Virus record (IMG/VR): IMGVR_UViG_3300022744_000001
Location: 354,022-418,021 of that record
Length of the DNA stretch: 64,000 nt
Source: a virus
Reading direction: 5' to 3' (one strand)
A program made the position numbers and the translations under genes. Each line of letters begins with the position of its first letter. The stretch's first letter is position 1. The notes under the pieces were generated by a model. It saw only the letters and a program-made list of their open reading frames with translations. It made no database searches and was not told where the DNA came from. Positions 1 to 43,027 of this stretch are shown here, in pieces.

Positions 1-99
1 CCAAGGCACCACCTTCTCGTAGACTGGGTGTCTACTGAAAGAGTCCTGCAACTCCAGGATGAGGCGGCGCTTGAGCGAGGAAGTCAGGTAGTAGTACAC
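1..99 (-). CDS. 5' end of a virion (probably tail-completion/neck) protein, truncated by the window edge
   Basis: Not in the ORF track. GTG at 99-97 after CAGGAG; reads MYYYLTSSLKRRLILELQDSFSRHPVYEKVVPW, open to position 1. Function inferred from context only. Confidence 0.55.
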   Translation of the reverse strand, partial: MYYYLTSSLKRRLILELQDSFSRHPVYEKVVPW

Positions 100-127
100 G
101 GGGCTCCTGGGGGAGCCCGGGTATCGG

Positions 128-1147
128 CTACTCGTGCTCCTGCATAGCCAAAACCAAAAGACCTTCTGCAACCGATGTCATGGGGTCCTTGGCCCGGCGG
201 ATTCCGGAGATGGGGATGGGGAAACCCTTCTTCACGGAGTTGAACTCCTCCTCGAAGACCTGCATGAACCCATCTGCTCGAGTCGTACCTCCCGAGACTA
301 CGAAGGGGATCGGTTCGGGAAGGTCGATCGTGTTGCGCTCCATCTTGAAGCGCTTGGCAATCTGCTCGAGCGTGTACCGAATCAGAGCCCGAATGTACAG
401 GGCGATAGCTTCCGCTTCTCGGTTGTCGCTCGAGGGCTTGGAGACGTCGAAGCCGCCCTTCTCCTTGATCGAACATACCCGGGTAGCCGTCGAACCCAGC
501 GCCTTGGCCGCATGGCCGTCAATCCAGTCGCCGCCACGGGCCAGGGAGAAGGACATGCCCATCATCGTTTGGAAGGACAAGGCCACGTTGCACATGCCCG
601 ACCCGTAGCTGATCGAGACGCCGGAGAAGTTGGTGTCGGCACACTGGCTGTAAATGATAGCCATGGCCTCATTCATCGGGTGCGCCGTGTACCCATGCTC
701 CTCGACGATCTTGCGGAAGACCTCGGTATGGTACAGGACGTTCTGGTCAGGCATGTCGATGGGGTCAGCGGGCACGCTGTAAAAGCAGTGCTCCTTGGGC
801 ACCACCGGCTCCCCGAGGACGTTGTGGATGATGTACGAAAGAACTCGCTGGGCATCCAACTCGCCCGCGGAAATGAGGCCCTTGGCCAGCGGCCGACGAA
901 CCTCGCGCTTGAAGATGTTGGCCATGTTCAAAGCGCTGTCACCTACCACGATGAGCTGGTCGGACCAGTCCGGTTCGTAGTAGTCCACCTTGGACATCTT
1001 CAGGATTTTCTTCGTCTCCGGGTCCAAGTCCAAGAAGGCGTCGCGGATACGTCGAGTCTTGACCACACCCTCTTCGTGACGGGCCGAGACGATATTCATG
1101 GTACCGATGTCGATGCCGACACCGGGAATGCGGTTATTGGTAGTCAT
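128..1147 (-). CDS. Actin-like ATPase (MreB/ParM/FtsA superfamily)
   Basis: Phosphate-1 GIDIGTMN, connect-1 NEAMAII, phosphate-2 SYGSGMCNVA, GGDWID, adenosine VSGGTT, connect-2 VAEGLL; 339 aa. Confidence 0.88.
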   Translation of the reverse strand: MTTNNRIPGVGIDIGTMNIVSARHEEGVVKTRRIRDAFLDLDPETKKILKMSKVDYYEPDWSDQLIVVGDSALNMANIFKREVRRPLAKGLISAGELDAQRVLSYIIHNVLGEPVVPKEHCFYSVPADPIDMPDQNVLYHTEVFRKIVEEHGYTAHPMNEAMAIIYSQCADTNFSGVSISYGSGMCNVALSFQTMMGMSFSLARGGDWIDGHAAKALGSTATRVCSIKEKGGFDVSKPSSDNREAEAIALYIRALIRYTLEQIAKRFKMERNTIDLPEPIPFVVSGGTTRADGFMQVFEEEFNSVKKGFPIPISGIRRAKDPMTSVAEGLLVLAMQEHE

Positions 1148-1155
1148 TGCCCTAT

Positions 1156-1866
1156 CTACACCGAGGGATTCAAAAGTCGCTGCTGGAGAAGGTACCTGTG
1201 TTCCTCATGCTTGTCCTCGATGCCTGCGATGAGGTTGTCCGTACCACGGCTCAACGAGCTGTTGTTCTTCAACAGCTCAACGATCTTGGTGACGCCGAGG
1301 CTCAACAGGGCCTCAGCTTCCAAGCTCTTCTGTACCAGCTCCGCCGCCGACTCCCCTGGCTGCCCCAGCGAGTTCAGGATATCGGCCACACAGCTTGCTT
1401 GAGCCCGGAAGTCGGCGATCAAAGTCGCCCCGGTGCTCCCCACGGCACGTTCTGCAACCGAGTCAATCTCCGGAAGCATGCCGTTGTAGAGCCGCTCAAA
1501 GAGCAGGTGGTCCCCGTAGGAGGTGTTGCCTTTCGTAACCCAGTGGTGGGTCTGGTGCACCATTGCCACCGCACGAAGGAACACGAGCAGCCCAGCCATC
1601 TCGGTACCTGGGGACGCAGCGAACACACTGAAAACCTGCGAGGCGGCCTTTAGCCGAGCCGAAGGCAAATAAGGTGGCCCATGGAGGTACGGATCATAGG
1701 ACGAGGGGTCCTGCCAGATCGCCTGGGTAGCGTCGTTAGAATAGGGGGGCGACGCTACTCCAGGGAAGTCAGGACCCGCCCTGAACAGCGGCTCCTGGGC
1801 CACTTTGGATGTGCCGGGCGACGTGCGCGCGACCAACGAGCTTGTCTTGTCGAGCAGGGATTTCAT
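1156..1866 (-). CDS. Dps/ferritin-like protein with ~80-aa N-terminal extension
   Basis: Dps ferroxidase-type motifs HQTHHWVTKG, DHLLFERLY, EIDSVAER; C-terminal helix DKHEEHRYLL. Confidence 0.8.
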   Translation of the reverse strand: MKSLLDKTSSLVARTSPGTSKVAQEPLFRAGPDFPGVASPPYSNDATQAIWQDPSSYDPYLHGPPYLPSARLKAASQVFSVFAASPGTEMAGLLVFLRAVAMVHQTHHWVTKGNTSYGDHLLFERLYNGMLPEIDSVAERAVGSTGATLIADFRAQASCVADILNSLGQPGESAAELVQKSLEAEALLSLGVTKIVELLKNNSSLSRGTDNLIAGIEDKHEEHRYLLQQRLLNPSV

Positions 1867-1900
1867 CGCGGGCCTCCGCCCTTAACGGAATACAGAAACA

Positions 1901-2545
1901 CTATTGATCTTTGCTCTTGCCTTTACGAAGGCCCTTCAGAGCCTTCGAAGCATCGGCAAGAGAGCCTGCATCCGAGGCTTCCTCTTTGAGGGAGACTCGG
2001 GCTTCGCCATTGTTGTCGGACTTGATCTGGGACGGGATGTAGATTGGAGCAGAGTCATCCACGTCGAGACCCGAAGACGCCGGAGCGCCCGTCACATTTT
2101 GAATGACCGTGGTCGGGCGAGACTTCACCAGCTCGAGGATGGCGTCCAACTTTGCATCCTTCCCCGTCGCCTCTTTCAGCTCCCGCTCGAGCCGCCCCAC
2201 CTCTCCTTTGAGGTGGACGTTCAACCCGTAAAGGTCGCCATTCTCCTTGATGAGCTGGGCGTTCTCTTCGCGGAGAGTTTCGTTTTCCAGGCTCAACCGG
2301 TCACGCTCCTCTTGAAGCTTGGGCACGGGAGGGGCCGCATGCGAGGGAGCGATAACCCGCAACACGCTATTGGCCTTGAGCTGAAAAATCACCCCTTGGG
2401 AGAGCAGCCTCCAGAGGTCTTTGGACTTGACTGCTTGAGCCCCCAAAATCGGAGTGGCTTCCCCTTTGGGTACCATCACGCCGATGTCCTCGATGAGCTT
2501 GTCCTCGCTCACTCCACATACGATCATATCTCCATTGCTGCTCAT
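1901..2545 (-). CDS. Hypothetical coiled-coil protein
   Basis: ORF with SD (AAGGAA) before MSSNGD; central heptad coiled coil. Confidence 0.6.
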   Translation of the reverse strand: MSSNGDMIVCGVSEDKLIEDIGVMVPKGEATPILGAQAVKSKDLWRLLSQGVIFQLKANSVLRVIAPSHAAPPVPKLQEERDRLSLENETLREENAQLIKENGDLYGLNVHLKGEVGRLERELKEATGKDAKLDAILELVKSRPTTVIQNVTGAPASSGLDVDDSAPIYIPSQIKSDNNGEARVSLKEEASDAGSLADASKALKGLRKGKSKDQ

Positions 2546-2556
2546 CTGGGTTCCTT

Positions 2557-3054
2557 TCAAAGGCGTAGCTTGCGCTGCCTAGCAGCCTTAGACACCACCT
2601 TCTGGACCTCCTCGACCATAGACTTCCGGATCTGCTTCTTGGCCTCTTCTTTGGCCTTCTCCACAAAGTCGTAGGGCGGGCGACCAGGGTGGACCCACTT
2701 CCCGTCCCGCATCGATTTAGGGGTTGCGGTCCGAAAGATCAACTCCCCCTCCTCAGTGATGATGGGGATAGGGGCTCGAGCCTTCACGAGCCAGGACATC
2801 TGCTTGTTCTTGCGCCCCCGCATCATGTTTGTGAAACCGGGGTGGGTCGAGTAAATCGTCAACGACGAGGGGCCGACCTCAATCTGAATAGCCTTGGAAA
2901 AGGCTCGCTTCGCTCGGTCAGAAAACGTGGACTGGAACAGTTTGTGACGAAGCCGAGCGAGAACGCTGGCCTTCACGCGGCGAAGCGCTCGCTCTGGGGT
3001 TACATCGAGGTCCCGAACAAGCGGTTTGCCATAGACTGATCCAAAACGGTCCAT
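2557..3054 (-). CDS. Putative neck/tail-completion protein (HK97 gp10-like)
   Basis: Basic 165-aa protein with C-terminal WVHPGRPPYDFVEKA pattern; follows the head-closure gene. Confidence 0.55.
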   Translation of the reverse strand: MDRFGSVYGKPLVRDLDVTPERALRRVKASVLARLRHKLFQSTFSDRAKRAFSKAIQIEVGPSSLTIYSTHPGFTNMMRGRKNKQMSWLVKARAPIPIITEEGELIFRTATPKSMRDGKWVHPGRPPYDFVEKAKEEAKKQIRKSMVEEVQKVVSKAARQRKLRL

Positions 3055-4406
3055 CAGTAGGTCGTGTTCTTCCAGGTGGTGGTGCGACCACGGTACTCAC
3101 GCTCGTCCCCAATCAATGGGTGATCGGTGACGTCATTCGGCGCCCCGAACTCAGGACCACGAGGCGCGAACTGCGTAGCAACGAACTTCACCGGGTTGCC
3201 CACCGGTACCTTGTACCGAATGTCCTTCTCGTCAAAGGACCCGATGTTGAAGTGCTGCTGCATCACCATGCCGCGGTTCGAGGGCATTCGAACCCCACCA
3301 ATTGAGAAGCGCTCCCCATTGAGCTTCATGATGAAGTCGCGGTGGCTGAGGATTGGTTGGGGGCCCGTCCAGACCTCATACACGTGCTCCTGGTTCCGGC
3401 CCATTTCCTTCTGAGAGACCTTCACCTCTGCATCGTCCGGGGCAACGATGATGTCGTAAGGACCCTCGTAGCCTCCCACGTACCCTGTCCCAAAGCACTT
3501 GAGACAATCGGAGAGAGGTTGCTTGTGGTGATCGGAAATGCACACGCACGGGACCCCAGTGTTCTTGCGAAGAAACACCTTCACCCGCTCGCCACCCTGC
3601 TCGAGGATGAAACGATTACGCCGAATGGCCTCCCGCCAAATCCAATCCAGCTTCTCGACCTCGAACGTGTTCGTAGCCGCGGCGTGCTCGAGAGGTGTCT
3701 CCACCAAGTCCTGGGGCTGCACCAGGGCAAGGTTGCACCCAACCGGCACCCCAACCGTCGTGACTCGGTAGAAGACACGCTGATTGAGGTCAGTCTTGAG
3801 CAAAGACCTCGTGTACCGGTAGGTGCAAGTCACCCGGCTCTGAGGGGTTGGGGCGACCACGGGGTAGTAGGTTTGCTTGGAGGTGTCCGGGTAGAGGTTG
3901 ACGTCGATCTCGACCTCTCCGGTACTCCCGTTGACCCGCAACACTCGAGCTTCAACCCCGTCAACGAAAACTCGAACGTCTCGAGCATCCTTCGTCGGGA
4001 TTCGATTCTGAGCCCCCTCTGCAACGATGGGGTAGTGAAGCGTCTTGAAGACGTACCGCTTTTCGTCTCGACCCGTAGAAGCCACTCCGAAGATCGTGAA
4101 GTTGTCGGTCACGTCTTCATCAACCACCAGCTCATTGTCGGTTTGGTCTCTCCAAAACGTGGACCCAACCGGCAAATCCGTGATGCGGGAGTACGGCCCA
4201 AACTCGGAGTCGAAGCTACGGTACACGTTGACGCCGAGGATCTGGAATCGGCTGTTAAGCATGAGATGGGACGGGTCATCCCACCGAAGGTCGATGAGAT
4301 TCCTCGTCCCATCCATCATGAACAGGTTGAGAGGTGGAGCTGGCCAGGGGGTCTTGGTCAGCTCCAACGGGTCAACACTGCGGTCTCGATCTCCACCTAG
4401 CGCCAT
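3054..4406 (-). CDS. Putative head-closure (neck) protein with N-terminal FN3-like domain and Zn ribbon
   Basis: PAPPLNL...LRWDDP...GVNVYRS (FN3-like); GERVKVF..CVC...CLKCFGTGYVGGY typical of large-phage neck proteins. Confidence 0.6.
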   Translation of the reverse strand: MALGGDRDRSVDPLELTKTPWPAPPLNLFMMDGTRNLIDLRWDDPSHLMLNSRFQILGVNVYRSFDSEFGPYSRITDLPVGSTFWRDQTDNELVVDEDVTDNFTIFGVASTGRDEKRYVFKTLHYPIVAEGAQNRIPTKDARDVRVFVDGVEARVLRVNGSTGEVEIDVNLYPDTSKQTYYPVVAPTPQSRVTCTYRYTRSLLKTDLNQRVFYRVTTVGVPVGCNLALVQPQDLVETPLEHAAATNTFEVEKLDWIWREAIRRNRFILEQGGERVKVFLRKNTGVPCVCISDHHKQPLSDCLKCFGTGYVGGYEGPYDIIVAPDDAEVKVSQKEMGRNQEHVYEVWTGPQPILSHRDFIMKLNGERFSIGGVRMPSNRGMVMQQHFNIGSFDEKDIRYKVPVGNPVKFVATQFAPRGPEFGAPNDVTDHPLIGDEREYRGRTTTWKNTTY

Positions 4407-4439
4407 AGGCCCTCTTCCAAGGGCCCAGGGATAAGGAAA

Positions 4440-4766
4440 TCAAGCCGAAGCAGGTTGCGTGTTCGGAAGCGGCTCAACCAGGGTGATAACGCCCGTCTGA
4501 GCGTCAATCCGAACGGGGTGCGCCGGGGGAATCCCACGGGACACCAGAACCGTCTCGAACAGACGTTGGCGCTCGAGGTCCACGTTCTGCGCCGCACGGA
4601 GCGTCTTGATCTTCTCCTGCTCGAGGTCAAGGATGCGCTCGGCCAGCTGCATACGAGCCCCCTGCATCTCCTCGAAACGCTTCAACGTCTGCGCGTCGAG
4701 GGGATCGTTGGCTGTCAACTTGGGTTGTTCTTGAGTCTGCGTCTCTGTGCTCATCTGAGGCTCCAT
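4440..4766 (-). CDS. Small coiled-coil hypothetical protein
   Basis: Coding-like part of ORF 4440..5093 begins at MEPQ (4766) or MSTE (4754); the upstream part overlaps 4787..5677. Confidence 0.6.
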   Translation of the reverse strand: MEPQMSTETQTQEQPKLTANDPLDAQTLKRFEEMQGARMQLAERILDLEQEKIKTLRAAQNVDLERQRLFETVLVSRGIPPAHPVRIDAQTGVITLVEPLPNTQPASA

Positions 4767-4786
4767 TTGGGTACCTACTACACCGG

Positions 4787-6545: not shown

Positions 6546-6944
6546 TCACCCCCGAAAGAAGGAAGTCTTGATCCCGATGCTGCCAACCCCCGCTGCTTGA
6601 GGTACCACGTCGTAGGTGAACGACACGGTCTGGTCTTCTGCGGGGTACGCAAGGATCACCCGCCAGAGCCCAATCACGTTCGGGTAGAACCGAATGTTGT
6701 AAAAGCCTGCGGACGGCTCTGTCCAGTACACCTTGCCTGCGGCCACACGCACATCCGGGATGCCCGCACCGGAAGTCAATGGCCACGCAAGCTGCGTCCC
6801 GTTCAGGGAGAGGTCAAGCTGGAGGTCGCTGACCAAAAGACCCGTCGCTCGGGTCACACCATCCCCGAGGAAGAAATCGATTGGCTCGAGCACCATCCGG
6901 TTCGCTTGAACCGAACGAGCCGGAGGCATGTTCACCAAAGCCAT
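6546..6944 (-). CDS. Ig-like virion protein, paralog of 6123..6530
   Basis: Same shared motifs as 6123..6530; GGAG SD. Confidence 0.7.
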   Translation of the reverse strand: MALVNMPPARSVQANRMVLEPIDFFLGDGVTRATGLLVSDLQLDLSLNGTQLAWPLTSGAGIPDVRVAAGKVYWTEPSAGFYNIRFYPNVIGLWRVILAYPAEDQTVSFTYDVVPQAAGVGSIGIKTSFFRG

Positions 6945-6996
6945 GTTCCACTCCGTGGGTTGCTACATCACCACGGCCTATCAGTGGAATAGAGCC

Positions 6997-8510: not shown

Positions 8511-9140
8511 TCAAGTCAGAGCAACAACGCTGGACAGCTGGGCGTCCGCGCGAACCTGAGCCGACGTGGTAGACGTCGCAACGCCCGGAATGAGGGCTGC
8601 TGGAATCACGATGCTCGTTGCCGAGACCGTGCCGCCACCCGTCGTGATCTGGGTCTGTGTCAACGTCTTGGCGCCGGTGCCCGTGAGGATGACCGTGGTG
8701 ATCTCCGGGGCGAGGGAGGTCAGGCCGGTGCCCGTGATGGTGAGGTCGCCAGAACTGGGGGTGTCCAGGTCCGCCGTCGTGATGACGGGGGCCACCACGT
8801 CTGTGGGCAGGAAAGAGGTCACCGTGATGAGACCCGCGACCTGAAGCCCGTGGATAGTGCCCTTAGCCTGGGAAAGGAGCACACGGTCGCCTTCCTTGAG
8901 GTCGATGTACCCAGCGACTGTGGCATCTCCCGCCTTTGTACGGGGGACGTACACCTTCTGCTTGTTGAAGTTGACGCCGGGCTTGGTGCTCTTGTCCGGG
9001 CCGCTGAGGCTGTTGCCGTCGCGAACGTAACGCTTGGGGTCACCCACACCACGCTTTGCCGTTTGGCGGGGCAGCCCATCGTTGATGTCGTTCAGCAGCA
9101 GAGCCCCTTGGACTGTCTGGTTGTGGGTAATCCTCAGCAT
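8511..9140 (-). CDS. Virion protein with C-terminal IPT/TIG-like domain
   Basis: Start at MLRITHNQ with CAGGAG SD; C-terminal domain paralogous to 7364..8119. Confidence 0.65.
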   Translation of the reverse strand: MLRITHNQTVQGALLLNDINDGLPRQTAKRGVGDPKRYVRDGNSLSGPDKSTKPGVNFNKQKVYVPRTKAGDATVAGYIDLKEGDRVLLSQAKGTIHGLQVAGLITVTSFLPTDVVAPVITTADLDTPSSGDLTITGTGLTSLAPEITTVILTGTGAKTLTQTQITTGGGTVSATSIVIPAALIPGVATSTTSAQVRADAQLSSVVALT

Positions 9141-9194
9141 GATCGCTCCTGGGGGTATCCTGGGTTGTTCAAAGACGCGAATCACATAAATGGA

Positions 9195-9713
9195 TCAAAG
9201 ACCATCTAGGGGAGCCGGGGAAGCGTCCTTGCTGGCCGAGAGAAACGCCAAAAGCATCTGGGGGTCGGTCGTACTTGAGTCGAACAACTCGGTACCTGGG
9301 AAGCCTCCAAACTTGAGCGCGTCAACCACGACCTCCGAGCAAAAAAGCGCGTTAGAGTCGTCGAAGGGGTTGCGCCACTTGCGCTTGAACCAACGCCCCA
9401 TAACCACGAATGCGGCCCCAAAAAAGCCGAAGTAGTCGTACCTGAACCCCAACCACTGAGTGACGCGTTGAATCCCTGGGATGATCGGGTGGTTCAAGTC
9501 GAAGATGGCGACAATCTTGTGGTGCTTCCGGAACGCCTCAAAGGTCAGCATCTGGAAGCCACCCATAGTCGCCTGCATGACCATGTCTTCCCCAAGGAAA
9601 GAGTCACTGACCAATAGCCAGGTATGACTCACCTTGCCCCGGGTGAAAAAACGAATGGCTCGAGAGACAAGCTTGTTGCTCGTCGAGAACCCCACCTTCA
9701 CTGTAGTTGGCAT
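9195..9713 (-). CDS. Permuted papain-like NlpC/P60 amidase (YaeF/YiiX-like)
   Basis: His before Cys: VSHTWL ... YDY ... LFCSEVV; start MPTT coupled by TGATG to the upstream gene. Confidence 0.75.
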   Translation of the reverse strand: MPTTVKVGFSTSNKLVSRAIRFFTRGKVSHTWLLVSDSFLGEDMVMQATMGGFQMLTFEAFRKHHKIVAIFDLNHPIIPGIQRVTQWLGFRYDYFGFFGAAFVVMGRWFKRKWRNPFDDSNALFCSEVVVDALKFGGFPGTELFDSSTTDPQMLLAFLSASKDASPAPLDGL

Positions 9714-18996: not shown

Positions 18997-20490
18997 TCAC
19001 CCCTTGAACTTGTCGCCGTACTCGTCGTTCATGTCCTTCCACTTGGCCGCATCTTCCTCGCTCATGTTCTCGGTCGGGTCCGCAGGCTTCCCAGACTCAA
19101 AACGGGAAAGACGAAGGCCAGGGGGCAACGTATCGGGGTCGAACTGCTGCTTCCCTCGGCTGAGGGAGAGCATGAGGCGAGTAGAAAGCTCCTCTTGGGC
19201 TCCGACAGACTTCAAAACGGGCCCCAGCTCGCCCGCAAGCCATGCCAACTCCTGGATGGCCCACTTGTACTGCCCACCCTCATACTTGCGCATGGCAAGG
19301 ATAGCGTGGGTCTTGATGGACTCGAACGTAGAGTACAAACCCACAGCCTGGTCTCGAGGTGGGGTTTCAAAATCCGCGACCTTGCTCTCCTCAGAGGCAA
19401 AGTTCGTCATGGGACGACCCGAAGACAACGTAGCCAAGTTCTTGCGGAGCATGACCAAAGGCAACACGGGGACCCCGTACGCCGAACCAATCACACCAAG
19501 ACCATCGACAAGCCCCAGAAGGGAGTAGAACAGCTTGCCCGTATTACCCTGGGCGTACGCTGCCATGGCCTTGCGGGCGTACAGCATGAGTTCCTCGACC
19601 CCCATCCCAACCTGCTCTTCGGTGCTGTTCTCAGGCGGGGGAGTCAGGAGCGCGGACTTGAAGTTGTCCTTGTTCTTCTCGTGCTCTTCTTTCCAGGTCT
19701 TGGCGTCTTCGGCGCTCATGTTCTCGGTCGGATCGGCGGGCTTGCCCTCCTCGAACCTGGAACGAAGTTGCTCTTCGCTCAGGCGAATCCCACCGGTACC
19801 AGGACCAACTACCCACGGCTCCTTGAGGGAGTTACCTGGGCCCCAAGCGTCATCGGCGGACTTGAAGTTGTCCTTGTTCTTCTCGTGCTCGGTCTTCCAC
19901 TTCTTGGCGTCCGCCTCATCCATGTTCTCGGTGGGGTCGGCGGGCTTGCCTTCCTCGAACCGGCTCCGGCGAGCCTCATCCGCGGAAGGGGACATGGCAG
20001 CAATGACCGTTTGGAGGGCTTGAGCGATCTTGCTAGTGCTCGGGCTCTCACCACGCTTTTGCTGGTCGTCGATCACGTTGGCGATATGGCGGAGCGCCTG
20101 TGCAACATCACTTCCAGTAGCCAGCTTCCTCATGGTCATCTCCTGTACCTTGGGTGCACGGCGGTCGAAATGACGAATCCGCACGTCTTTGAGCACGCTT
20201 TCCAACTCTTGTACCTTCTCGGGGCGAAGCTCTTGTTTCAGCTCCTCGTAGTCGAGACGAGAAGCTGCCAGAGCCGTCGCATCCAAAGCCTTGTCGAGAC
20301 GAAAGAGAGCGTCGGGGATGGCGTAGAGAAGGTCGGCTGCCACTTCGTAAATGTGGTTCTTCTGGGTAGACTCCGAAACGAGCCGCATAGCCCGGTCGAT
20401 ATACCCCTTCAGCTGCTCACAACGAAGGCGGGCATCAGTCAGTTCTTCCATGAGGTAGACTGTGATGCCCGCGGTCTTCTCTACCATCAT
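18997..20490 (-). CDS. Putative internal head protein with three 38-aa repeats
   Basis: RSRFEEGKPADPTENM..EDA..WK....K..D.FK occurs three times. Confidence 0.65.
   Translation of the reverse strand: MMVEKTAGITVYLMEELTDARLRCEQLKGYIDRAMRLVSESTQKNHIYEVAADLLYAIPDALFRLDKALDATALAASRLDYEELKQELRPEKVQELESVLKDVRIRHFDRRAPKVQEMTMRKLATGSDVAQALRHIANVIDDQQKRGESPSTSKIAQALQTVIAAMSPSADEARRSRFEEGKPADPTENMDEADAKKWKTEHEKNKDNFKSADDAWGPGNSLKEPWVVGPGTGGIRLSEEQLRSRFEEGKPADPTENMSAEDAKTWKEEHEKNKDNFKSALLTPPPENSTEEQVGMGVEELMLYARKAMAAYAQGNTGKLFYSLLGLVDGLGVIGSAYGVPVLPLVMLRKNLATLSSGRPMTNFASEESKVADFETPPRDQAVGLYSTFESIKTHAILAMRKYEGGQYKWAIQELAWLAGELGPVLKSVGAQEELSTRLMLSLSRGKQQFDPDTLPPGLRLSRFESGKPADPTENMSEEDAAKWKDMNDEYGDKFKG
19000..19968 (-). 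repeat. Three dispersed ~114-bp intragenic direct repeats (19000-19110, 19651-19764, 19855-19968)
   Basis: Visible DNA identity, e.g. catgttctcggtcggg and gacttgaagttgtccttgttcttctcgtgctc. Confidence 0.85.
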
Positions 20491-20541
20491 CGTCCCCTTG
20501 TTCTCTCAAGCCTTCGAGACGATCAGGGCACAAGAGGACTT

Positions 20542-21663
20542 TCAACCCGCGAATGCCTCGGGGAACTCCTCGAGCAGGGCGCGCTTGAACTCGTCCGTTT
20601 CCGCGGCAAAAATGGCGCGGATGACGTCGGGTCGGTCAGTGTAGTCAAGCTGAATACGTGCCAAACGCCGCTTCCAGTGGTCGTCGAACGAGTAGTTGTC
20701 GGGGAAATCCGGGCACAGGGCCTTGGCGATGGACCGACGGGCGTCCGCCGTCCCGTCCTTGCCCCCTGGGAGGGTCGAGGCGGCCGGTTGCAGAGGTTTC
20801 ACGGAGCCTGGGCCATTCGTGTTGCTGAACGAGATTCCTTCGACCGTCTTGGTGCTCAGAACCGGCTTTTCGACCGTCGTAGGGATGTAGATCTCTCCAA
20901 CTCCCGCCCCCCTGGTGGTCAGAGTAGAGGTGATGCCCTCGGACACGACCACCGCCGCCGCTTTCTTCATCGGTGCAGGAGTCGGGGTCGTCGTGGGGAG
21001 AATGCCTTTGGCAAGAAGTTCTGCGTCGTACACAGACTTTCGAGCCTCTTTGTCAGCCAGGTACTTCGCCTGGTCCTCTTCGCTGAGGCGAGCCAAATAC
21101 TCGCTCTCACTCAAACCCTCACCGGGGTCGATTTTCACAGCGTTGGCCTGGTGGATGGCCTCACCCGCACGAGACATATCGGTCGAAGTCTTGGCCGAAG
21201 TCTTGAAAGTGCGAGCCACGGGACGGGCATCTTGGGGCTCAATGTCATAACCATGCCCTCGAGCCGACGCGGCACGTTGCTGGTTTGCACTCGCCACACG
21301 AGTTTCACGAGAGCCCACCACACGTTCATCCGACTGCACCGTGACAGCAGCAGTCCGAACCGGAGGCGTGGTCAAACTCTGCTCGTTGGTTACAGCCGGT
21401 CGAAGCCCAATGTTGGCTGAAACCGGGGCAGCCATCGGCCCACCGGGAACGTACTTGGCGCTGGGCACCAACCACCCCAGACGAATCGCACCCCGAAGCT
21501 GGGGCAGCATGTACTTTTCCTCGTTGAAAACGACGGTGGTACCGTCAAAGAGGATTTCCGAGCCATCGGGGATGTTCTGTCCTGTGGTACCCAACGCGAA
21601 AGACCGCGTTGCAATATAAGACTCGAACTTGTTGGCGGAGAATTTGATCTGATCCTGATTCAT
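20542..21663 (-). CDS. Hypothetical protein (head module)
   Basis: 373-aa ORF with AGGAGG SD. Confidence 0.6.
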   Translation of the reverse strand: MNQDQIKFSANKFESYIATRSFALGTTGQNIPDGSEILFDGTTVVFNEEKYMLPQLRGAIRLGWLVPSAKYVPGGPMAAPVSANIGLRPAVTNEQSLTTPPVRTAAVTVQSDERVVGSRETRVASANQQRAASARGHGYDIEPQDARPVARTFKTSAKTSTDMSRAGEAIHQANAVKIDPGEGLSESEYLARLSEEDQAKYLADKEARKSVYDAELLAKGILPTTTPTPAPMKKAAAVVVSEGITSTLTTRGAGVGEIYIPTTVEKPVLSTKTVEGISFSNTNGPGSVKPLQPAASTLPGGKDGTADARRSIAKALCPDFPDNYSFDDHWKRRLARIQLDYTDRPDVIRAIFAAETDEFKRALLEEFPEAFAG

Positions 21664-21696
21664 CTGGGGCCTCCTATAGGGGGCCTATGACAAGTA

Positions 21697-21743
21697 AATT
21701 AAAGACCAAGGGGCAGACGGCCCGAAGACCGACTGCCCCTTGG
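21697..21743 (-). terminator. Rho-independent terminator after the HU gene
   Basis: CCAAGGGGCAG-TCGGTC-TTCG-GGCCGT-CTGCCCCTTGG then TCTTTAATTT; UUCG tetraloop. Confidence 0.8.
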
Positions 21744-22183: not shown

Positions 22184-22453
22184 TCACTCCCCGGAATCCC
22201 AGGGTGTGATTTCAATGCTGGACACCGGGACGAGTTCTGCTTCCTCGTCACAATAGGCTTCGATGGGCGGAAGGTCATCCGCACTCATCGGGTCCTGCAA
22301 CACGGGGGTTTGCAGTTCTTCTTCGAACGCGCCCTCACCGTCTCGCTGAGTTTCGACCAAATTCAGATCTGTAAGCGTGGCAATCGATACCGCACCCTTC
22401 TGGTACATATCAAAGAGTGCAGAGTCCTTGGCGCCTTTGTCCGAAGCAGTCAT
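22184..22453 (-). CDS. Small acidic protein containing a portal-like peptide
   Basis: 89 aa; ALFDMYQKGAVSI matches portal ALFNLYQKGSVSI; follows the capsid terminator. Confidence 0.6.
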   Translation of the reverse strand: MTASDKGAKDSALFDMYQKGAVSIATLTDLNLVETQRDGEGAFEEELQTPVLQDPMSADDLPPIEAYCDEEAELVPVSSIEITPWDSGE

Positions 22454-22471
22454 TGGAAGCTAGGTACACCG

Positions 22472-22510
22472 AAAAACAAAAGGGCCGCTCGGTTTTCCCG
22501 AGCAGCCCTT
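22472..22510 (-). terminator. Rho-independent terminator after the major capsid gene
   Basis: AAGGGCTGCTCGG-GAAAA-CCGAGCGGCCCTT then TTGTTTTT. Confidence 0.85.
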
Positions 22511-22530
22511 CAAGTACCTACGCTGTCCGG

Positions 22531-24123: not shown

Positions 24124-25506
24124 TCAGCGGCCGTTGATACCGAACGCCGAACTCACATCCGGAGACGAGTTCCACATCGAGGAGAGGTTCGAGACGTCGT
24201 CTCGCTTGCCACCCACCGAGGGGAGTCCGCCAAGCTGGCTCACGCCCTGGGTAGGACGGGTACCAACCGTGCGGGTAGAAGCGGTGCGAACCGCATGGGC
24301 TTGCTTCTGCTGACCCTGACCCTGCTGGGCCTGCTCAGCATCTTCGGACTCCTGGTTGGCGAAGAGCTTGCGAAGCACTTCGTCATCCGTGGCGGTCATG
24401 GCGAACTCGCCCATGTCCATGGCCGGAGCTTCAAGCTCGAGGCCCATGTCTGCCACCATGGGGTCCTGCTGGGACAGCATGTCGTCGATGAGCTGCGAAT
24501 CAGCAACCTGCTGTTGCTGGCTCATGGGGCCCATGCAAGCCTGAGTGGCTTCCATGGCAGCCTTCACAGGATCCTTGCCGCTGGCGATAGCGTCCGCCAT
24601 GGCCTTCTGGATGCGGGCAGCGGCCTGCTTCTGCTGGTCTTGACCCTGGTCCTGTTGACCCTGGTCCTGCTGAGCCTGCTTCTGGCCCTGGTCCTGCTGA
24701 CCCTGATCCTGCTGACCCTGATCCTGGGCCTGCACTACCTGGGGCTGCTGGGCAACCTGCTGTTGCTGGGCAACCTGCTGCTGCTGAGCCTGCTGGAGCA
24801 GCTGAGCAACCTGCTGCTGCATCTGGGCAAGCTGCTGCTGAGCCTGCTGGAGCTGCTGGGCAACCTGCTGCTGCTGAGCCTGCTTCTGACCCTGGTCCTG
24901 CTGGCCCTGGTCCTGCTGGCCCTGGTTGGCTTCCTTGTCCTGGCCCTGGTCCTTGCCCTCGGCCTTGTCCTTCTTCTCCTCGTTGAACTTCTTCAACGCG
25001 GGGGGAAGTTCACCAGCCTGCTTGTCCTGGTCCTGGCCTTCATCCTGGCCCTCGTCCTGGTCCTGCTGCTCCGCCACCAGACGCTTGTAGGTGGCAGCAA
25101 GCTCGACCTCGGGGAGGTGCATAAGGCTGGTCGCCTGAGCCTCCACAGAGGTCTCGGAAGCGGTCTTGGGCAACATCGCCCTGGACACAGCCACGGCGAG
25201 GGATGCCTTCGAGATCAGAGCGGCCTCAGAGGCCGTCTTCTCGGGGTGGTTGAACGTGTCCTTGCGGAACTCCGGCTGGCCGATCTCGTTGCGCTTGACC
25301 TGATCACCGCTGTACTCGGCACGCCAGGTACCGGCCGACGGGTGGGGGTCTTCAGCAAACGTCGAAGGGTCCCCGATCACGTACTTGTCGCCGGGAGGGT
25401 TCTTGCTGACGTGGTCCTGATTCATCAGGTACGGGTCCGCACTCTTCATGTGGCTCGCCCTCTTGGCGATCTCTTCGCGGTTCCAGGTGGTGCGCTCGCG
25501 GGACAT
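24124..25506 (-). CDS. Putative prohead scaffolding protein, Gln-rich
   Basis: Between protease and decoration/MCP genes; low complexity; many K-x-A sites. Confidence 0.7.
   Translation of the reverse strand: MSRERTTWNREEIAKRASHMKSADPYLMNQDHVSKNPPGDKYVIGDPSTFAEDPHPSAGTWRAEYSGDQVKRNEIGQPEFRKDTFNHPEKTASEAALISKASLAVAVSRAMLPKTASETSVEAQATSLMHLPEVELAATYKRLVAEQQDQDEGQDEGQDQDKQAGELPPALKKFNEEKKDKAEGKDQGQDKEANQGQQDQGQQDQGQKQAQQQQVAQQLQQAQQQLAQMQQQVAQLLQQAQQQQVAQQQQVAQQPQVVQAQDQGQQDQGQQDQGQKQAQQDQGQQDQGQDQQKQAAARIQKAMADAIASGKDPVKAAMEATQACMGPMSQQQQVADSQLIDDMLSQQDPMVADMGLELEAPAMDMGEFAMTATDDEVLRKLFANQESEDAEQAQQGQGQQKQAHAVRTASTRTVGTRPTQGVSQLGGLPSVGGKRDDVSNLSSMWNSSPDVSSAFGINGR
24630..25070 (-). repeat. Intragenic low-complexity tandem repeats (QDQGQ and QQQQVA units)
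   Basis: Repeated 15-bp CAGGA(C/T)CAGGG(C/T)CAG and 18-bp CAGCAGCAGCAGGTTGCC-type units. Confidence 0.85.
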
Positions 25507-25550
25507 TGCGGGGTTTCCTTTCCTTGTGGAGAGCAGTATAAAAACTTCCG

Positions 25551-27155
25551 TCAGAGGCCCGTCGAGAACAGCTTGCCCTTTTCAACCAGCAAGGCCCTCT
25601 CAGAGTCCGTTAGCCCTCGACCCATGAATTTAGAACATGCATCGAGGTACCTATTTACATCTGGGTATCGACCGGTGCCGCCAACTGCGACCACGGTCCT
25701 ATAAACTCTAGCCTCACCGGCCATTGACGCTCTCTTCTGGATTCGCCCCATAAGACGATCCGCGACGAGGATCTCCGAACCGGTGAACCTGTTCGCCTTA
25801 CGGACAAGTTCCCATCCCCCTTTGGAGTAAAGGATCATTGCCGCAAGGATACTGCGTGCTTTCTCAGCATCGCTAACGCTGGCGACCACGGTCTGTGCTC
25901 GCTCGCGCCACTCAACAAACTGCAAGGCAGACTTGATGAGGGACTCGTTGGATTTGTTCTCGTCGAGGACTGACTTTGTCTTCTCGGCCTCAGACTGAGA
26001 AATCTGGTCCTTGACCTTCTCAGTGACCTTGTCCACGAGCGTGTTGTAGAGGTCATCCACGTGCTTTTTGAGAGGGTCAGTTGGCGCCTTCGATTCCTGC
26101 GAAGGCGCATTCATCCCGTCATCAAAAGCTGCGAGTTGACCCAACCGCTCACGACGAGCCAGGGCGGCTGCTTCCACCGCGACATTGGGTTTCGACGCCT
26201 TGAGGTACCCAATGGAGGGCCCTTCGTAGAGATACGCAGAACCGTCCGAGGGGACCACCTGCTGAGGCTGCCAACGAGCTGCCTTCTGGATGGCGTTGGG
26301 GTCAGCCACTTCAACCGGCATCTGGAAAGCCGCCTGCATCTTGTACCCGGCCATTTCAGCGGCCTTGGGGTCCAGAATATTGCGGAGAACAGCACCCTTG
26401 AATGCAGGGTTTGCAACCCAAGAGGCTTCAATGAATTTCACCGACCCGGGCTCGGTCGCGATGTGACCGCAGAGTTCAGCGATCTTCCGCCGCTGGCCTG
26501 CACCGTCGAGGAAGAAGTTGCCCTTCTCATACTTGATGTGACGGCAAAGTTGAGTTTCATCTTCGGCCACGTTCCCGCACTTGGTGCAGATGGTGAACGA
26601 GACCTGGCAACCCATGGACAGGGTGCCGAGCTGACCGCTTGTGATGGCTCCAATGAGCGCACGATGCTTGCGCTCCGTTGCCACGAGGATGTCGATGTAG
26701 ATCGAGTCCCCGATATCACGAGCCGCCGCGTCAATGATTCGACCCTTGCTCAGCTCCGGAATCTGAACGTGCTCGACGTAGTTCTGACCTCCCACGAAGG
26801 TGCGGAACGAAGCCAGGAGCAGCTTGCGCTCGAACGCATCGTGGTTGTTGTTGACGTACTTGGTAGAGCCAACGCCAACGTAAAAGTCAGGGTACTTCCG
26901 GTCAACCTGCACCCCATCAAAAAGGTGCTTGCCCAGGGGCATACCCATGGGTGACTCGGTATCGACCGAAGCCACAATCGTGCAGTGACTCAACAGATAC
27001 TGAGTAGGGTCATATTGGCCCAGTACAACCTGCGTCGCCCGCCTCATCTCAAAGGTGGACGACGGGCTCACCGCCGCATGACGAATCTGCTCCCAACCAT
27101 CGTGAGTGATCACGGGGTTGATAACGGCTGCCTTGGCGTACTTGGAAAAGGCCAT
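25551..27155 (-). CDS. Prohead maturation serine protease with Zn-binding insert and C-terminal extension
   Basis: NNNHDAF, NYVEH, KGRIIDA, LSMGC, CTKC..CRH..ELC, FIEASWVANPAF; HK97/assemblin-type layout. Confidence 0.75.
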   Translation of the reverse strand: MAFSKYAKAAVINPVITHDGWEQIRHAAVSPSSTFEMRRATQVVLGQYDPTQYLLSHCTIVASVDTESPMGMPLGKHLFDGVQVDRKYPDFYVGVGSTKYVNNNHDAFERKLLLASFRTFVGGQNYVEHVQIPELSKGRIIDAAARDIGDSIYIDILVATERKHRALIGAITSGQLGTLSMGCQVSFTICTKCGNVAEDETQLCRHIKYEKGNFFLDGAGQRRKIAELCGHIATEPGSVKFIEASWVANPAFKGAVLRNILDPKAAEMAGYKMQAAFQMPVEVADPNAIQKAARWQPQQVVPSDGSAYLYEGPSIGYLKASKPNVAVEAAALARRERLGQLAAFDDGMNAPSQESKAPTDPLKKHVDDLYNTLVDKVTEKVKDQISQSEAEKTKSVLDENKSNESLIKSALQFVEWRERAQTVVASVSDAEKARSILAAMILYSKGGWELVRKANRFTGSEILVADRLMGRIQKRASMAGEARVYRTVVAVGGTGRYPDVNRYLDACSKFMGRGLTDSERALLVEKGKLFSTGL

Positions 27156-35414: not shown

Positions 35415-37388
35415 TTACCTCCGAAACGCACGAGGGGTGATTCGATCTAGATGGACCCCGTGCGAACGCATGCGTGCACGTTGGTACCCGGCAGAAGTCA
35501 AATACCGAGAACTCCCACTCGGGACGAGCCCGCTAGGAGCTACCAGTTTCATGTTGCCCAGCCGCTCGAGCGAAAGCCACACCGCACGAACGTAAGCGTC
35601 TGACATATCGTCGTGGAACCCAGCCGCTTGAGGGGCCTCGACTTTGACTTGGTTCCTGGACATCTGGGTCTGCTGCAAAGACAGCAGCTCCCCAATGAGC
35701 GGGGAGTGCTTCACCGTCTGGCTTGTGTAGGTGACCGGGTGATCGTAGAGCACCAACCGACGGTCGAACATCAGCATCTTGGTACTCTGAAACATCTTGC
35801 TCGTGGTATCCGTTGTAAAAAACTCACTACGGAACTGCTTCAGGCCCTTCTTGTGCAAAGCCTGCTCGAGCGGCAACCCGTTCCATCGGTCGAAAAGCCC
35901 GTCACTGATGTAGAACTTCTTGCTGAGCGCGTAAATCCACTCGGCAATCGCGTCAAAATCGATGCGGTCCACACCGTCCAAGGTTTTTGCGTAATCGGTC
36001 GCCGGTGCCACCAGGTGGGGGTTCGACTCTCGCCAGGACTTACCCGCGTACCAAACCTCGTGATAGTCGAGGACGACTTTGTCCCCCTCAAGGTGGGTGA
36101 TCGCTACGGTGCTCCCGTCATTCACGAGGCCAACGTCAACACCCATCTGGTGAGGCAAGCGGGGAGGTCCGAACGTCTTCGGTCGCAAATCGAGCTTGAT
36201 GCAGTCGAGGAGGTCTTGTTCGCGCTCAATCCATCCACGACGACGGTCGGTGAAGGCCGCCCCGAACTCGGTATCGAACACCGCCGGGTCCTCATGGTAC
36301 TTCTCACGAAGGAACGTCGGTTCTACCGTAGGGTTCACCTCCCAGGTCGGCGCCTGGATGGCGAGCATGTTTTCGGAGCCCTCCGCATTGCTCATTGCGA
36401 AGTGGAAAAGCTCGTAGAACTTGCCTGCACGGTTGAGGGGCGAAGAGATGCAGATCACTCGAGCTTGCACCTCCCCGATCGGCTCCGTTGGGTCATTCGG
36501 ATGCTTCGGGGAGAACGCCATCGTGGAAGGTACCACGGCGTCGTAGATGTCCTTCGCCGAGGACACGCCCGTGTCCTGGAAGTGCGCCATCTCGTCAAGG
36601 ATGACCACGATGTTACCCGAGCCACGAAGGCCCTTCGACACGCTCGCTTTGAACGTGACGCGGAGCGAGGACTTGCCGCTGAAGCTCGTGAACTTGCCGT
36701 TCTCATGGCGAATCGTCGGCCCGTACTTCTCAATGTCGTACGGGGTCCGGAAGTTCACCAACGACTGGGTGTTGTTCGCGATGTACGGCTTGAAGAACTC
36801 GCACTTGGCCAAATGGCTCGAGACGTCATTGAACAGCAGGCCCGCCTGGTCCTTGTCCGTAGCGACCGAGATGATCTGGATACGGTTACCGTTGGGCAAC
36901 CCGTAGTATTCCTGGGGGTTACCCAGGCAGATCAGTCGGTAAAGCTCGTAGCTCGCAAAAATCGCGGAGAGCGTGGTCTTACCGCTACGACGACCAATGG
37001 GCAGGATGAGCGTCCTGCGCATATGGTCCTGCTCACCGATGTTGCACCGGCCCTCAGCATGCAGGTACTTGAGGTACTCCGTTTCGGTAAATTCGTAGAG
37101 GACTCGCTGCTTGAAGCGGTCCGTGATGGTGATGGTCTTGTCGCGGTCGTTGAGGGGTATGTTGTAGTAGAGCTTGACGATGAACCGCTGAACTGGGTAG
37201 AGCTTCATCTGCAAACCCCAGGACGCCTCGGCGTACTGGAGCACGTTGAAGATACGGGTGGTACGACCTTCAATGGTCGTGGCACTCTCGGAGCCTTGAC
37301 CAGCCGTATTCTCGGCAATGGCTTTGGCTTGAGATCCAGCGTTTCTGATTAGGGACGCTATGTCCCCTCTTTCCTTGTACTTTGGCAC
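35415..37388 (-). CDS. terL: Terminase large subunit
   Basis: Walker A GRRSGKT, Walker B VVILDE, coupling motif ISSP, nuclease GVDVG and HDDMSDA. Confidence 0.92.
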   Translation of the reverse strand: MPKYKERGDIASLIRNAGSQAKAIAENTAGQGSESATTIEGRTTRIFNVLQYAEASWGLQMKLYPVQRFIVKLYYNIPLNDRDKTITITDRFKQRVLYEFTETEYLKYLHAEGRCNIGEQDHMRRTLILPIGRRSGKTTLSAIFASYELYRLICLGNPQEYYGLPNGNRIQIISVATDKDQAGLLFNDVSSHLAKCEFFKPYIANNTQSLVNFRTPYDIEKYGPTIRHENGKFTSFSGKSSLRVTFKASVSKGLRGSGNIVVILDEMAHFQDTGVSSAKDIYDAVVPSTMAFSPKHPNDPTEPIGEVQARVICISSPLNRAGKFYELFHFAMSNAEGSENMLAIQAPTWEVNPTVEPTFLREKYHEDPAVFDTEFGAAFTDRRRGWIEREQDLLDCIKLDLRPKTFGPPRLPHQMGVDVGLVNDGSTVAITHLEGDKVVLDYHEVWYAGKSWRESNPHLVAPATDYAKTLDGVDRIDFDAIAEWIYALSKKFYISDGLFDRWNGLPLEQALHKKGLKQFRSEFFTTDTTSKMFQSTKMLMFDRRLVLYDHPVTYTSQTVKHSPLIGELLSLQQTQMSRNQVKVEAPQAAGFHDDMSDAYVRAVWLSLERLGNMKLVAPSGLVPSGSSRYLTSAGYQRARMRSHGVHLDRITPRAFRR

Positions 37389-37392
37389 AGGT

Positions 37393-37971: not shown

Positions 37972-37974
37972 GAA

Positions 37975-41808: not shown

Positions 41809-41816
41809 CGGAGACC

Positions 41817-42083
41817 TCAAACCTTGAGAGGGGACCCGTCATCCGAGAACATGCGCTCCACGAACATGGAGCCGTCGGTCTGGCGCTTGATCGCCCAGAG
41901 GTCCTTGTCCGCCTTGTGCACAAGGGTTTCATTGCTGAGGCGAGCGAACCCAGCCAAATCTTGGATTGAAGCGATCTTGCGACGCGCAGTATGGGGTGTC
42001 ACGACCTGGGGCTCACGCTCCATGAAAGAGTCGAGCCCGTGAGAGCCCTGGACTTGAAGATCGGACAGGTCGAACTTGGCCAT
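41817..42083 (-). CDS. Small hypothetical head-module protein
   Basis: 88 aa, GAGGG SD. Confidence 0.6.
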   Translation of the reverse strand: MAKFDLSDLQVQGSHGLDSFMEREPQVVTPHTARRKIASIQDLAGFARLSNETLVHKADKDLWAIKRQTDGSMFVERMFSDDGSPLKV

Positions 42084-42090
42084 AGTACCC

Positions 42091-42993
42091 TCACGTGATT
42101 ATTAGTTGAATCTCAACGTCCACGTAGTTGTTGGTACTATATCCGGCCACACGAAGGGTTTCCGTGTAAGTACCTTGAGTCATGTTGTTCGGAGGCTGCA
42201 CGGTAACCGTGATTGGGTCGTGTCCTCCGGAGTTGAGTTGACCAGAAGACGGGGAGATCCCTGTCAACCAATCAGACAGACCAGTCAATTTGTTGACCTG
42301 GTACTCGAGGACCGACCCGGATACCCCCAGGTTCTGGACGTTGAAAGTCTGGGTTGGGATCGAGGGGAAGCTCCCCACCAAGGGCCTCACCACAGTGAAA
42401 GTCAACTGGAGCACGCTGCACCCAATCGTGGCCTTGGGCAGCACCACGATGGTCACCGGTACCATCTGCGGGCTGTTGGTGGCCCCAGGGTCCTGGATGG
42501 TCAGCATCTCGTTGTAAGGGCTGTCCACGGCCAACAACGCCGCCGAGTTGACGTCCACGTCGAACTGCCCGGACTCGTTGAGCGCCAGGTTGCCAATGTT
42601 TGCGGGGGTCGCTCGCACGTACGACGCCGACGTCGTGATCGTCACACCCAAAATTGAGCCGTACACGCCATCGTTCGTGAGCAGAACGCCTTGGGACAAG
42701 GAATAACCCTGCCCTTCGGTAACCGTGAACGTGAGGCTGCTCGGAGGCCCAACGAGGATGTGCGGACTGAAATTGGCTTGCAACTCGGTGATGCTCTCAG
42801 CCATGGCCTGGACCACGCTGCCAGGCAAAGGGATCGAGTCCCTCAGCAAACCATACGGGGAAACGATGTCCCGAATCGAATACTCTGGATTCGACTTGGA
42901 AACGTCAAGCCGCGTCGTCCACCGCCACTTGCCAGCAGGGACAGCGACTTCGAACTGGTAGTCGTGGACTTTCAGGTTGGAGACAAGCGGCAC
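42091..42993 (-). CDS. Virion protein with two BACON/Ig-like domains
   Basis: PSSLTFT...ATNSPQMVPVT and WLTGISPSSGQL..ITVTV..GTYTETLRV. Confidence 0.65.
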   Translation of the reverse strand: MPLVSNLKVHDYQFEVAVPAGKWRWTTRLDVSKSNPEYSIRDIVSPYGLLRDSIPLPGSVVQAMAESITELQANFSPHILVGPPSSLTFTVTEGQGYSLSQGVLLTNDGVYGSILGVTITTSASYVRATPANIGNLALNESGQFDVDVNSAALLAVDSPYNEMLTIQDPGATNSPQMVPVTIVVLPKATIGCSVLQLTFTVVRPLVGSFPSIPTQTFNVQNLGVSGSVLEYQVNKLTGLSDWLTGISPSSGQLNSGGHDPITVTVQPPNNMTQGTYTETLRVAGYSTNNYVDVEIQLIIT

Positions 42994-43017
42994 AGTTCCC
43001 TCTTCTGTGCCGACCCC

Positions 43018-43027
43018 ATAAGAAGAA
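43018..43027 (-). promoter_or_regulatory. Putative phage late-promoter element (TTCTTCTTAT) at the start of the virion module
   Basis: Related AT-rich 10-mers upstream of about 13 virion genes (see findings). Confidence 0.55.

Follow-up and report, generated by a model that had tools for sequence, protein, structure and literature searches.

Covarying hairpins predicted over the initiation regions of several virion genes, next to a promoter-like motif, in a clade of huge phages

Introduction

Several genes of phage T4 (e, soc, 49, I-TevI, and segB), as well as mobE of phage Aeh1, carry a helix that hides the Shine-Dalgarno (SD) sequence and/or the start codon in RNA reading in from upstream (PMC3014915). 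In T4, a late promoter is situated at the region encoding the 5′ strand of the helix, such that RNA started there lacks this strand and is translated (PMC3014915). In the T4 late genes 25 and 38, a hairpin between the SD and the AUG shortens the spacing of these elements and improves initiation (PMC3014915). Herein, we analyze predicted hairpins over the ribosome-binding sites (RBSs) of virion genes in a 64,000-nt stretch of DNA ("the window"), i.e., bases 354,022–418,021 of IMG/VR record IMGVR_UViG_3300022744_000001, a 447,761-bp viral genome with direct terminal repeats and a G+C content of ~58%. An earlier note on this window had proposed that such hairpins, each following a putative late promoter motif, lock the translation of its virion genes in a module-wide version of the T4 switch.

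The hairpins described here resemble those occluding T4 genes in that the 5′ arm abuts a late-type motif, and their arms covary across relatives. Unlike in T4, (i) the promoter-like motif is unrelated to TATAAATA, with its transcript start placed by spacing; (ii) the arm follows the motif and occupies what is presumed to be the spacer separating it from the start site; and (iii) a quarter to a third of one promoter class appears to be affected across a clade of phages of 200–530 kb, with genes in divergent gaps included, all of this being known from sequence alone. As with T4 genes 25 and 38, the initiation regions of late virion genes are structured, and one gene family displays its SD in a loop (that of the window gene starting at 42993); unlike in genes 25 and 38, the sequence upstream of the SD is paired with the spacer and start codon, an arrangement expected to inhibit initiation. 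The principle is already known from T4. What is new is the promoter-like motif, its apparent leaderless mode, and the maintenance of the hairpins across a huge-phage clade, as shown by covariation.

Results

Hairpins covary across related phages

Genes are referred to below by the window coordinate at which they start, and the coordinates of all features are collected in Table 1. The record belongs to an IMG/VR clade of uncultured phages (200–530 kb) sharing 40–74% protein identity; a megablast search of 12 kb against GenBank phages returned no match, leaving the record with no near relative there. Orthologous leaders were collected from 46 IMG/VR loci and 18 related records. Single-protein pattern scans of IMG/VR gave few relatives for 42993, 20490, and 9140, for which a direct search of the 18 related records succeeded; the 1866 gene family lacks a conserved N-terminus, and its leaders were left out of the comparison.

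Conserved, covarying hairpins are predicted to hide the SD or start codon of several virion genes. In an alignment-free test of covariation, the first 13 nt after the motif were paired with either the RBS of the same gene or that of an orthologue. Pairing with the own RBS was the stronger in the families of 4406 (−11.8 vs. −8.3 kcal/mol; p = 5e-5), 42993 (−10.4 vs. −6.9 kcal/mol; p = 5e-5), and 21663 (−9.2 vs. −6.7 kcal/mol; p = 0.002), with the 9140 family at −7.3 vs. −6.6 kcal/mol (p = 0.10). Among orthologues, these 13-nt segments are only 27–37% identical in the four families, and 31–37% identical in the three with a significant result. Within the 4406 family, 16 of the 26 distinct leaders fold with z < −1.64 and the arms vary between relatives, from GGGCCCT/AGGGCCT in the window to AAGCCCT/AGGGCTT, GTGCCT/AGGCAC, CGGGCC/GGCCCG, GGGGAC/GTCCCC, and AGGTGG/CCACCT; in close relatives, the lower stem reads GGCG/CGCC, GGCA/TGCC, or GGCT/AGCC. 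Folding is more stable for the sense than for the antisense strand in the 4406 (p = 0.0003) and 42993 (p = 0.03) families, which argues for a structure of RNA rather than DNA. When 16 leaders from the 4406 family were aligned with MAFFT, RNAalifold predicted no consensus because the arms are too divergent for a sequence-based register, and Rfam covariance models gave no match at gathering score over the whole window.

Across 29 structured orthologous leaders (20–56 nt in length), the hairpins begin at +1 to +5 after the motif and the RBS-pairing 5′ arm lies at a median of +3 to +12. A stable helix sequestering the RBS, as in T4, is predicted for 4406, 42993 (start codon only), 20490, and the 21663 family. 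The 4406 hairpin covers the SD (GAGG) and extends to the A of the ATG, and the TGA of the motif preceding it is the stop codon of a small upstream gene (4440–4766) that itself has a GGTGTA-type promoter motif (see below). At 42993, the SD (AAGAGGGAA) occupies a loop of 9 nt, and the 3′ arm contains the GTG start. For 20490, the predicted minimum-energy fold differs from the pairing originally claimed, with CCCT at +2 to +5 pairing to AGGG of the SD around an inner hairpin; members of this family have either a 15-nt SD-less spacer or a 27–45-nt leader forming one hairpin from motif to start codon. In orthologues of 21663, a CCTATAG-type arm at +3 to +13 pairs with the CTATAGGAG SD region, and the intervening loop varies in length. 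Searches of PHROGs and Pfam assigned no function to the hairpinned genes. The 42993 family (300 amino acids, with weak Ig-like/BACON matches; orthologous loci L083–L098) also uses a GTG or TTG start in nearly all relatives, in addition to the stem over the start codon.

Hairpins are gene specific

The remaining sites behave differently. Sixteen orthologues of the gene starting at 99 lack the hairpin seen over its SD in the window, and no late-type motif lies upstream of that hairpin, the best match to the position weight matrix (PWM) scoring 6.1 bits at a distance of 53 nt. Neither the hairpin nor the motif of 6944 is conserved in orthologues, nor is the claimed pairing at 9140; a separate box, GAACCC(T)TCC, is conserved in the 27–48-nt leaders of the 9140 family (window 9141–9185, minus strand; orthologous loci L099–L116). 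The local GGGC/GCCC hairpin at 1866 holds the SD (GGAG) in its loop, with a leader z of −1.4 and an RBS-occlusion z of 0.8. Upstream of gene 24124–25506, which is probably the major capsid gene (an assignment made by position only, directly downstream of the protease gene), the motif is kept 31–36 nt away in 15 relatives (L196–L211), and the leader (window 25507–25537, minus strand) is conserved, open, and purine rich (CAAGGAAAGGA). The 15 orthologous capsid-like leaders give a z of about +0.4 and no preference for their own RBS (own vs. cross p = 0.21), a design opposite to that of the hairpinned genes. Together with the failing sites, this open leader indicates that the hairpin is gene specific, being neither a part of the promoter nor module wide.

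With respect to the earlier note, all of the stems it named are present on the minus strand where it placed them, that of 9140 with a bulge. Its late motif is real in the sense of being enriched between genes (see below), even though site 99 has none and that of 6944 is weak and not conserved. A 5′ arm within 0–8 nt of the motif, pairing with the SD or start codon, agrees with the arm positions in orthologues, and does not hold up to conservation at 99, 6944, and 9140. The same split applies to compensatory changes in related phages, which are present in the 4406, 42993, and 21663 families (p ≤ 0.002), with no conserved pairing at those three sites.

Pairing exceeds chance within the genome, unevenly

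Genes were called with a self-trained hexamer model, choosing starts by SD and coding score, resulting in 618 genes. Relative to dinucleotide shuffles, leader folding energy is lowest for 4406 (z −3.2) and 42993 (z −2.4), with the other claimed sites at z −0.1 to −1.5. Across 46 long-leader motif genes, the mean folding z is −0.43 (p = 0.03), and 15% of leaders reach p ≤ 0.05 vs. 7% of control leaders. When the energy required to open the RBS was computed in windows from −60 to +20, as the earlier note had suggested, 20490 (16.1 kcal/mol vs. 7.8 ± 2.6 in shuffles; z 3.1) and 6944 (z 5.0) exceeded their shuffles, and the other six claimed sites did not (z 0.2–1.5). Motif-bearing long leaders as a class are harder to open than other genes (mean 10.5 vs. 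8.8 kcal/mol; p = 0.003). Most shuffles of the upstream sequence likewise occlude the G-rich RBS, at 7–12 kcal/mol.

A further test keeps the composition of both arms, by pairing the first 6–18 nt after the motif with either the gene's own RBS or the RBSs of other motif genes. Own pairing is the stronger, at −8.27 vs. −7.13 kcal/mol (permutation p = 0.002, n = 43). No such effect is seen in long leaders of the GGTGTA and GGTATAG classes described below or at pseudo-sites at matched distances (p 0.45–0.9), nor in the ten genes of the structural block taken alone (p = 0.29). Repeated in G001, a related genome of 407 kb, the test gives p = 0.03, with pseudo-sites not significant.

The partner of the RBS is concentrated at −9 to +8 around the motif end, at 2–2.5 times the control level. 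In leaders of at least 35 nt, RBS pairing still favors the promoter-proximal segment (0.20 per nt) over the nearer leader (0.08), an order reversed in controls (p = 0.008). Cutting the leader at +13 is predicted to lower the opening energy from 10.3 to 5.2 kcal/mol, a computed drop of 5.1 vs. 3.2 in controls (p = 0.003). Some arms include the motif or lie upstream of it, for example at two genome sites beyond the window (−203350 and 88461 in window coordinates) and, by eye, at L002; such an arm cannot be present in RNA begun at that promoter.

A promoter-like motif with two spacings

Expectation-maximization on intergenic upstream sequence returned a late-type motif consisting of a pyrimidine-rich box ending in TAT or TGT (matrix consensus TAATCTTCTTGTG; 9.1 bits). 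At a threshold of ≥11 bits, its density is 0.45 sites/kb in intergenic DNA vs. 0.02/kb in sense and 0.05/kb in antisense coding DNA, and the genome holds about 60–70 sites. The motif is kept upstream of orthologous genes in related huge phages even as the flanks diverge. It often begins at the stop codon of the upstream gene, and the first base after it is G at about half of sites. Since divergent gaps, some as short as 44–49 nt, account for 24 of 60 sites, the motif acts without an upstream gene on the same strand, as promoters do. Two other roles were rejected: that of a terminator U-tract, given the conserved TAA/TGA-TC flanks and the sites 14 nt before starts in divergent gaps, and, as a general role, that of translational coupling via a terminating ribosome, given those same 24 sites. 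As part of the lock reading weighed in the Discussion, and with the same tentativeness, we take (T)AATCYYYTT(G/A)T to be a candidate phage promoter of the class preceding virion genes.

Start codons show a bimodal distribution of distances from the end of the TTRT, with 21 sites at 13–15 nt, ~5 at 16–21 nt, and a broad class from 22 nt up; the virion genes named in the earlier note belong to the long-spacing class. The short-spacing class is SD poor, with an SD-like 4-mer in 29% vs. 53% of genes overall. In G001, the spacing peak is again at 14 nt, and the corresponding values are 12% and 56%. The SD-poor class at 13–15 nt and the dearth at 16–21 nt together suggest that transcription probably starts ~14 nt after the motif, since a leader of 2–7 nt would exceed what leaderless initiation tolerates yet leave no room for an SD. 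With such a start, the 5′ arm (+3 to +12) would fall just upstream of the transcript. Pyrimidine at −1 of the leaderless-type starts is not above genome background.

Matches to sigma factors in the genome are limited to one region-4 protein (43061–43696) and a weak region-2 match. Near base 1,200 of the genome (352,819 bases before the window start), the end of a tRNA-like gene (…GCTCCGACCA) coincides with the start of a late-type motif, after which an RBS hairpin GGGATTCC…GGAAATCC follows.

Other upstream motifs and read-through

Two further motif classes are present. GGTGTA (often CCGGTGTA) lies 8–11 nt before 80 SD-poor start codons in the whole genome, e.g., at 4767–4786, 1148–1166, and 22454–22476 in the window; an SD-like 4-mer precedes 11% of these genes and 75 of the 80 start with ATG. 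Its spacing in G001 is likewise 9–11 nt, and in the ~35–50-nt gaps between divergently oriented genes, both genes of a pair share palindromes such as TACACCGGCGGTGTA. From these features, GGTGTA looks like a promoter class giving leaderless mRNAs. The third motif, (C)GGTATAG(A), is found 29 nt or 36–44 nt before ~22 genes. In several genes, a GGTGTA or GGTATAG box comes after a late-type motif, a layout suggestive of tandem promoters.

The 72 window genes all lie on the minus strand, consistent with the co-orientation described in the earlier note, and belong to a co-oriented block of ~160 kb. Terminator-like sites are not above shuffles. With the block co-oriented and terminators not enriched, read-through RNA is plausible. 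Directly upstream of 4406 in the window is a small GGTGTA-led gene, an arrangement shared by 6 of 35 other distinct loci; no such gene precedes the capsid-like gene. Directly after the terminator at 22479–22511, a GGTGTA box and a small gene (22184–22453) form an early-type unit embedded in the virion module. Short, G+C-rich hairpins also lie directly upstream of the late-type motifs of 42993 (43028–43042) and 21663 (21710–21739, terminator-like), both on the minus strand; these may be leaky terminators just before a promoter, with the T-rich motif as a possible tail. Unlike the 160-kb block, the first 250,000 bases of the genome show very frequent strand switches according to the gene caller, as well as several gaps of 700–2,200 nt with no called gene.

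Table 1. Positions of leaders, motifs, hairpins, and neighboring genes in the window (window coordinates)
Feature	Coordinates	Strand	Details
Motif GGTTCTTCTTAT	43018–43029	−	Upstream of gene 42091–42993; ends 24 nt before GTG; PWM 12.1 bits; kept in at least 12 orthologous loci
Hairpin, 8 perfect bp, CGGCACAG (43012–43005) with CTGTGCCG (42995–42988)	42988–43012	−	Leader folding z −2.4 to −2.8
Motif TGATTTCCTTAT	4431–4442	−	Upstream of gene 3054–4406; PWM 13.1 bits
Hairpin TGGGCCCTT (4427–4419) / loop GGAA / GAGGGCCTA (4414–4406)	4406–4427	−	Leader −17.6 kcal/mol; z −3.2 to −3.4
Motif AAGTCCTCTTGT	20530–20541	−	Upstream of gene 18997–20490, 39 nt before ATG; PWM 13.4 bits; kept in orthologues
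Predicted RBS-hiding leader structure; claimed pairing ATCGTCTC (20523–20516) with GGGACGAT (20496–20489)	20489–20528	−	
Motif TAATTTACTTGT	21690–21701	−	Upstream of gene 20542–21663, 26 nt before ATG; PWM 13.1 bits; kept in orthologues
Weak local hairpin (GGCC..GGCC) around CCCCCTATAGGAGG	21664–21689	−	z just −1.4 in the window
Motif TGATCCATTTAT	9186–9197	−	Upstream of gene 8511–9140, 45 nt before ATG; PWM 13.0 bits; kept in orthologues
Claimed bulged long-range pairing GTGATTCGC (9185–9177) with GCGATCAT (9146–9139)	9139–9185	−	Leader z −0.1; not conserved
Weak motif TATTCCACTGAT (6991–6980) and stem CCGTGG (6976–6971) / CCACGG (6958–6953)	6953–6991	−	Adjoins SD of gene 6546–6944; PWM 8.3 bits
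Hairpin GGGCTCC / CCCA / GGAGCCC	101–118	−	Over SD of gene starting at 99; RBS occlusion z 1.5
Weak motif TAGTGTTTCTGT(AT)	1892–1903	−	Upstream of gene 1156–1866
Motif GGAAGTTTTTAT	25538–25549	−	Upstream of probable major capsid gene 24124–25506; leader purine rich and unstructured (negative example)
Head-protease-like gene	25551–27155	−	Within co-oriented block
Large terminase gene	35415–37388	−	Within co-oriented block
Sigma-70 region 4 protein (211 amino acids) with second helix-turn-helix	43061–43696	−	Pfam E 2e-13; last gene before first late-type motif of virion block
Intrinsic terminator, 14-bp stem, then T run	22479–22511	−	Only strong one in first 40 kb

Discussion

A T4-type lock in reduced form is our best reading of the hairpins, to which we assign a probability of roughly 0.45. 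In this model, a start codon 13–15 nt after the motif would yield an mRNA that is leaderless or nearly so, for which no SD would be needed. In genes with an SD-bearing leader, the ~13 untranscribed nt between the motif and the start site would be free to evolve, and in a subset of these genes the post-motif segment, sometimes together with the pyrimidine tract of the motif, would have been turned into the 5′ arm of a hairpin, with the gene's own SD, spacer, or start codon as the 3′ arm. RNA arriving from upstream would contain both arms and thus support poor translation of that gene; such RNA would be likely, given the 160-kb co-oriented block, terminators that are not enriched, and the embedded early-type GGTGTA genes. 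RNA from the gene's own promoter would instead begin in the loop, leaving the RBS open. The lock may operate at roughly one-quarter to one-third of this class's long-leader promoters, including those of 4406, 42993, 21663, and 20490 in the window.

Several observations weigh against this lock. At the promoter, long leaders showed neither a second element nor an initiator at a constant spacing from the motif, and no conserved initiator at +10 to +17; the +1 to +13 segment is G+C rich, which is odd for a region that has to melt; and profiles for phage RNA polymerases (PF00562, PF00623, and PF00940) have no match in the genome. The SD of the 4406 and 42993 families is positioned no more tightly relative to the motif (standard deviation 1.2–1.9) than to the start codon (1.6–1.8); on this ground, a proposed "N13/14 GAGA" element was rejected as simply being the SD. 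With regard to read-through, hairpins are just as strong behind an upstream neighbor of opposite orientation (z −0.43 in either group), and two divergent gaps of 90 and 102 nt hold strong hairpins with no other recognized promoter. The gene upstream of 20490 is also a late-motif gene, which makes an early/late switch a less obvious purpose at that site. Members of the 42993 family mostly have the SD in the loop, and their stem covers only the spacer and the GTG/TTG start. The occlusion in excess of each gene's own shuffles is also not significantly larger for motif genes (z 0.71) than for controls (z 0.42; p = 0.15), even though the class mean and the 20490 and 6944 sites had stood out. Finally, the start at ~14 nt is itself deduced from spacing, and a start right after the TTRT would place the entire hairpin in the late mRNA.

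That last arrangement is the strongest competitor, albeit one we consider improbable: with transcripts starting at or just after the TTRT, the hairpin would be a 5′-terminal stem-loop throttling low-copy virion proteins, setting their ratios, and maybe protecting the 5′ end from decay. This would fit the onset of hairpins at +1 to +5, the frequent G as first base after the motif, and the hairpins in divergent gaps with no visible source of read-through. It would also fit the probable major capsid gene, i.e., the gene whose product is needed most, keeping its motif with an open leader while other virion genes are hairpinned, as well as the association of the 42993-family hairpin with weak GTG/TTG starts. 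Such a design would nevertheless leave the sharp SD-poor class at 13–15 nt and the dearth at 16–21 nt unexplained. Moreover, the RBS of long leaders pairs with the far, promoter-proximal segment, in part with the motif itself, which could not be transcribed from that promoter, and a hairpin serving to stabilize the 5′ end need not involve the RBS at all.

The motif could also work in RNA, either as a site for a hairpin-opening translational activator or as an endonuclease processing site leaving a hairpin-protected 5′ end; we regard this as quite unlikely. At com/mom of phage Mu, a conserved site is located immediately 5′ of an RBS-sequestering hairpin that Com opens at mom. The motif here is reminiscent of this in being conserved, single-stranded, A+T rich, and placed directly before a variable hairpin that holds the RBS; it also often begins at the stop codon of the upstream gene. 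Unlike in Mu, the motif here is also found 14 nt before SD-less starts that have no hairpin to open, and in divergent gaps that require a promoter and in which no other motif is present. No Com-like protein was found either, as the zinc-ribbon profile PF10122 has no match in the 447,761-bp genome at E ≤ 0.1 (a non-homologous activator being outside this search), and no Rfam family matches.

Least likely, and in our view improbable indeed, is that the pairings are a by-product of composition, in which pyrimidine-rich motifs and G+C-rich leaders pair with purine-rich SDs without selection: most shuffled upstream sequences do occlude the RBS, six of eight claimed sites fail to exceed shuffles in RBS occlusion, the structural block alone is not significant, and sites 99, 6944, and 9140 are not conserved, yet the own-vs.-cross tests keep composition and are positive in two genomes, three families show covarying arms, folding favors the sense over the antisense strand in two, and neither the other promoter classes nor pseudo-sites show the effect.

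Returning to the T4-type lock, the module-wide switch envisaged by the earlier note is overstated. The span 99–43027 contains 51 genes and nine long-leader motif sites, from which ~4–6 genes have some support, and the capsid-like leader is open. A broader proposal, which we consider doubtful, is that the 200–530-kb clade would use one promoter class in two ways, either leaderless (13–15 nt) or with an SD leader in which the spacer serves as an anti-RBS arm. Many late genes would then be readable only from their own promoter, with the lock acting as a general translational insulator that replaces terminators in the 160-kb block.

Huge phages have hundreds of co-oriented genes and few terminators, and the timing and dosing of their expression are poorly understood. 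The motif, its likely leaderless mode, and the covarying RBS hairpins in at least three virion gene families thus provide testable handles on gene control in an uncultured clade. If the lock is true, no new principle would be involved; rather, the T4 trick would prove to be a general solution instead of one peculiar to a few T4 genes.

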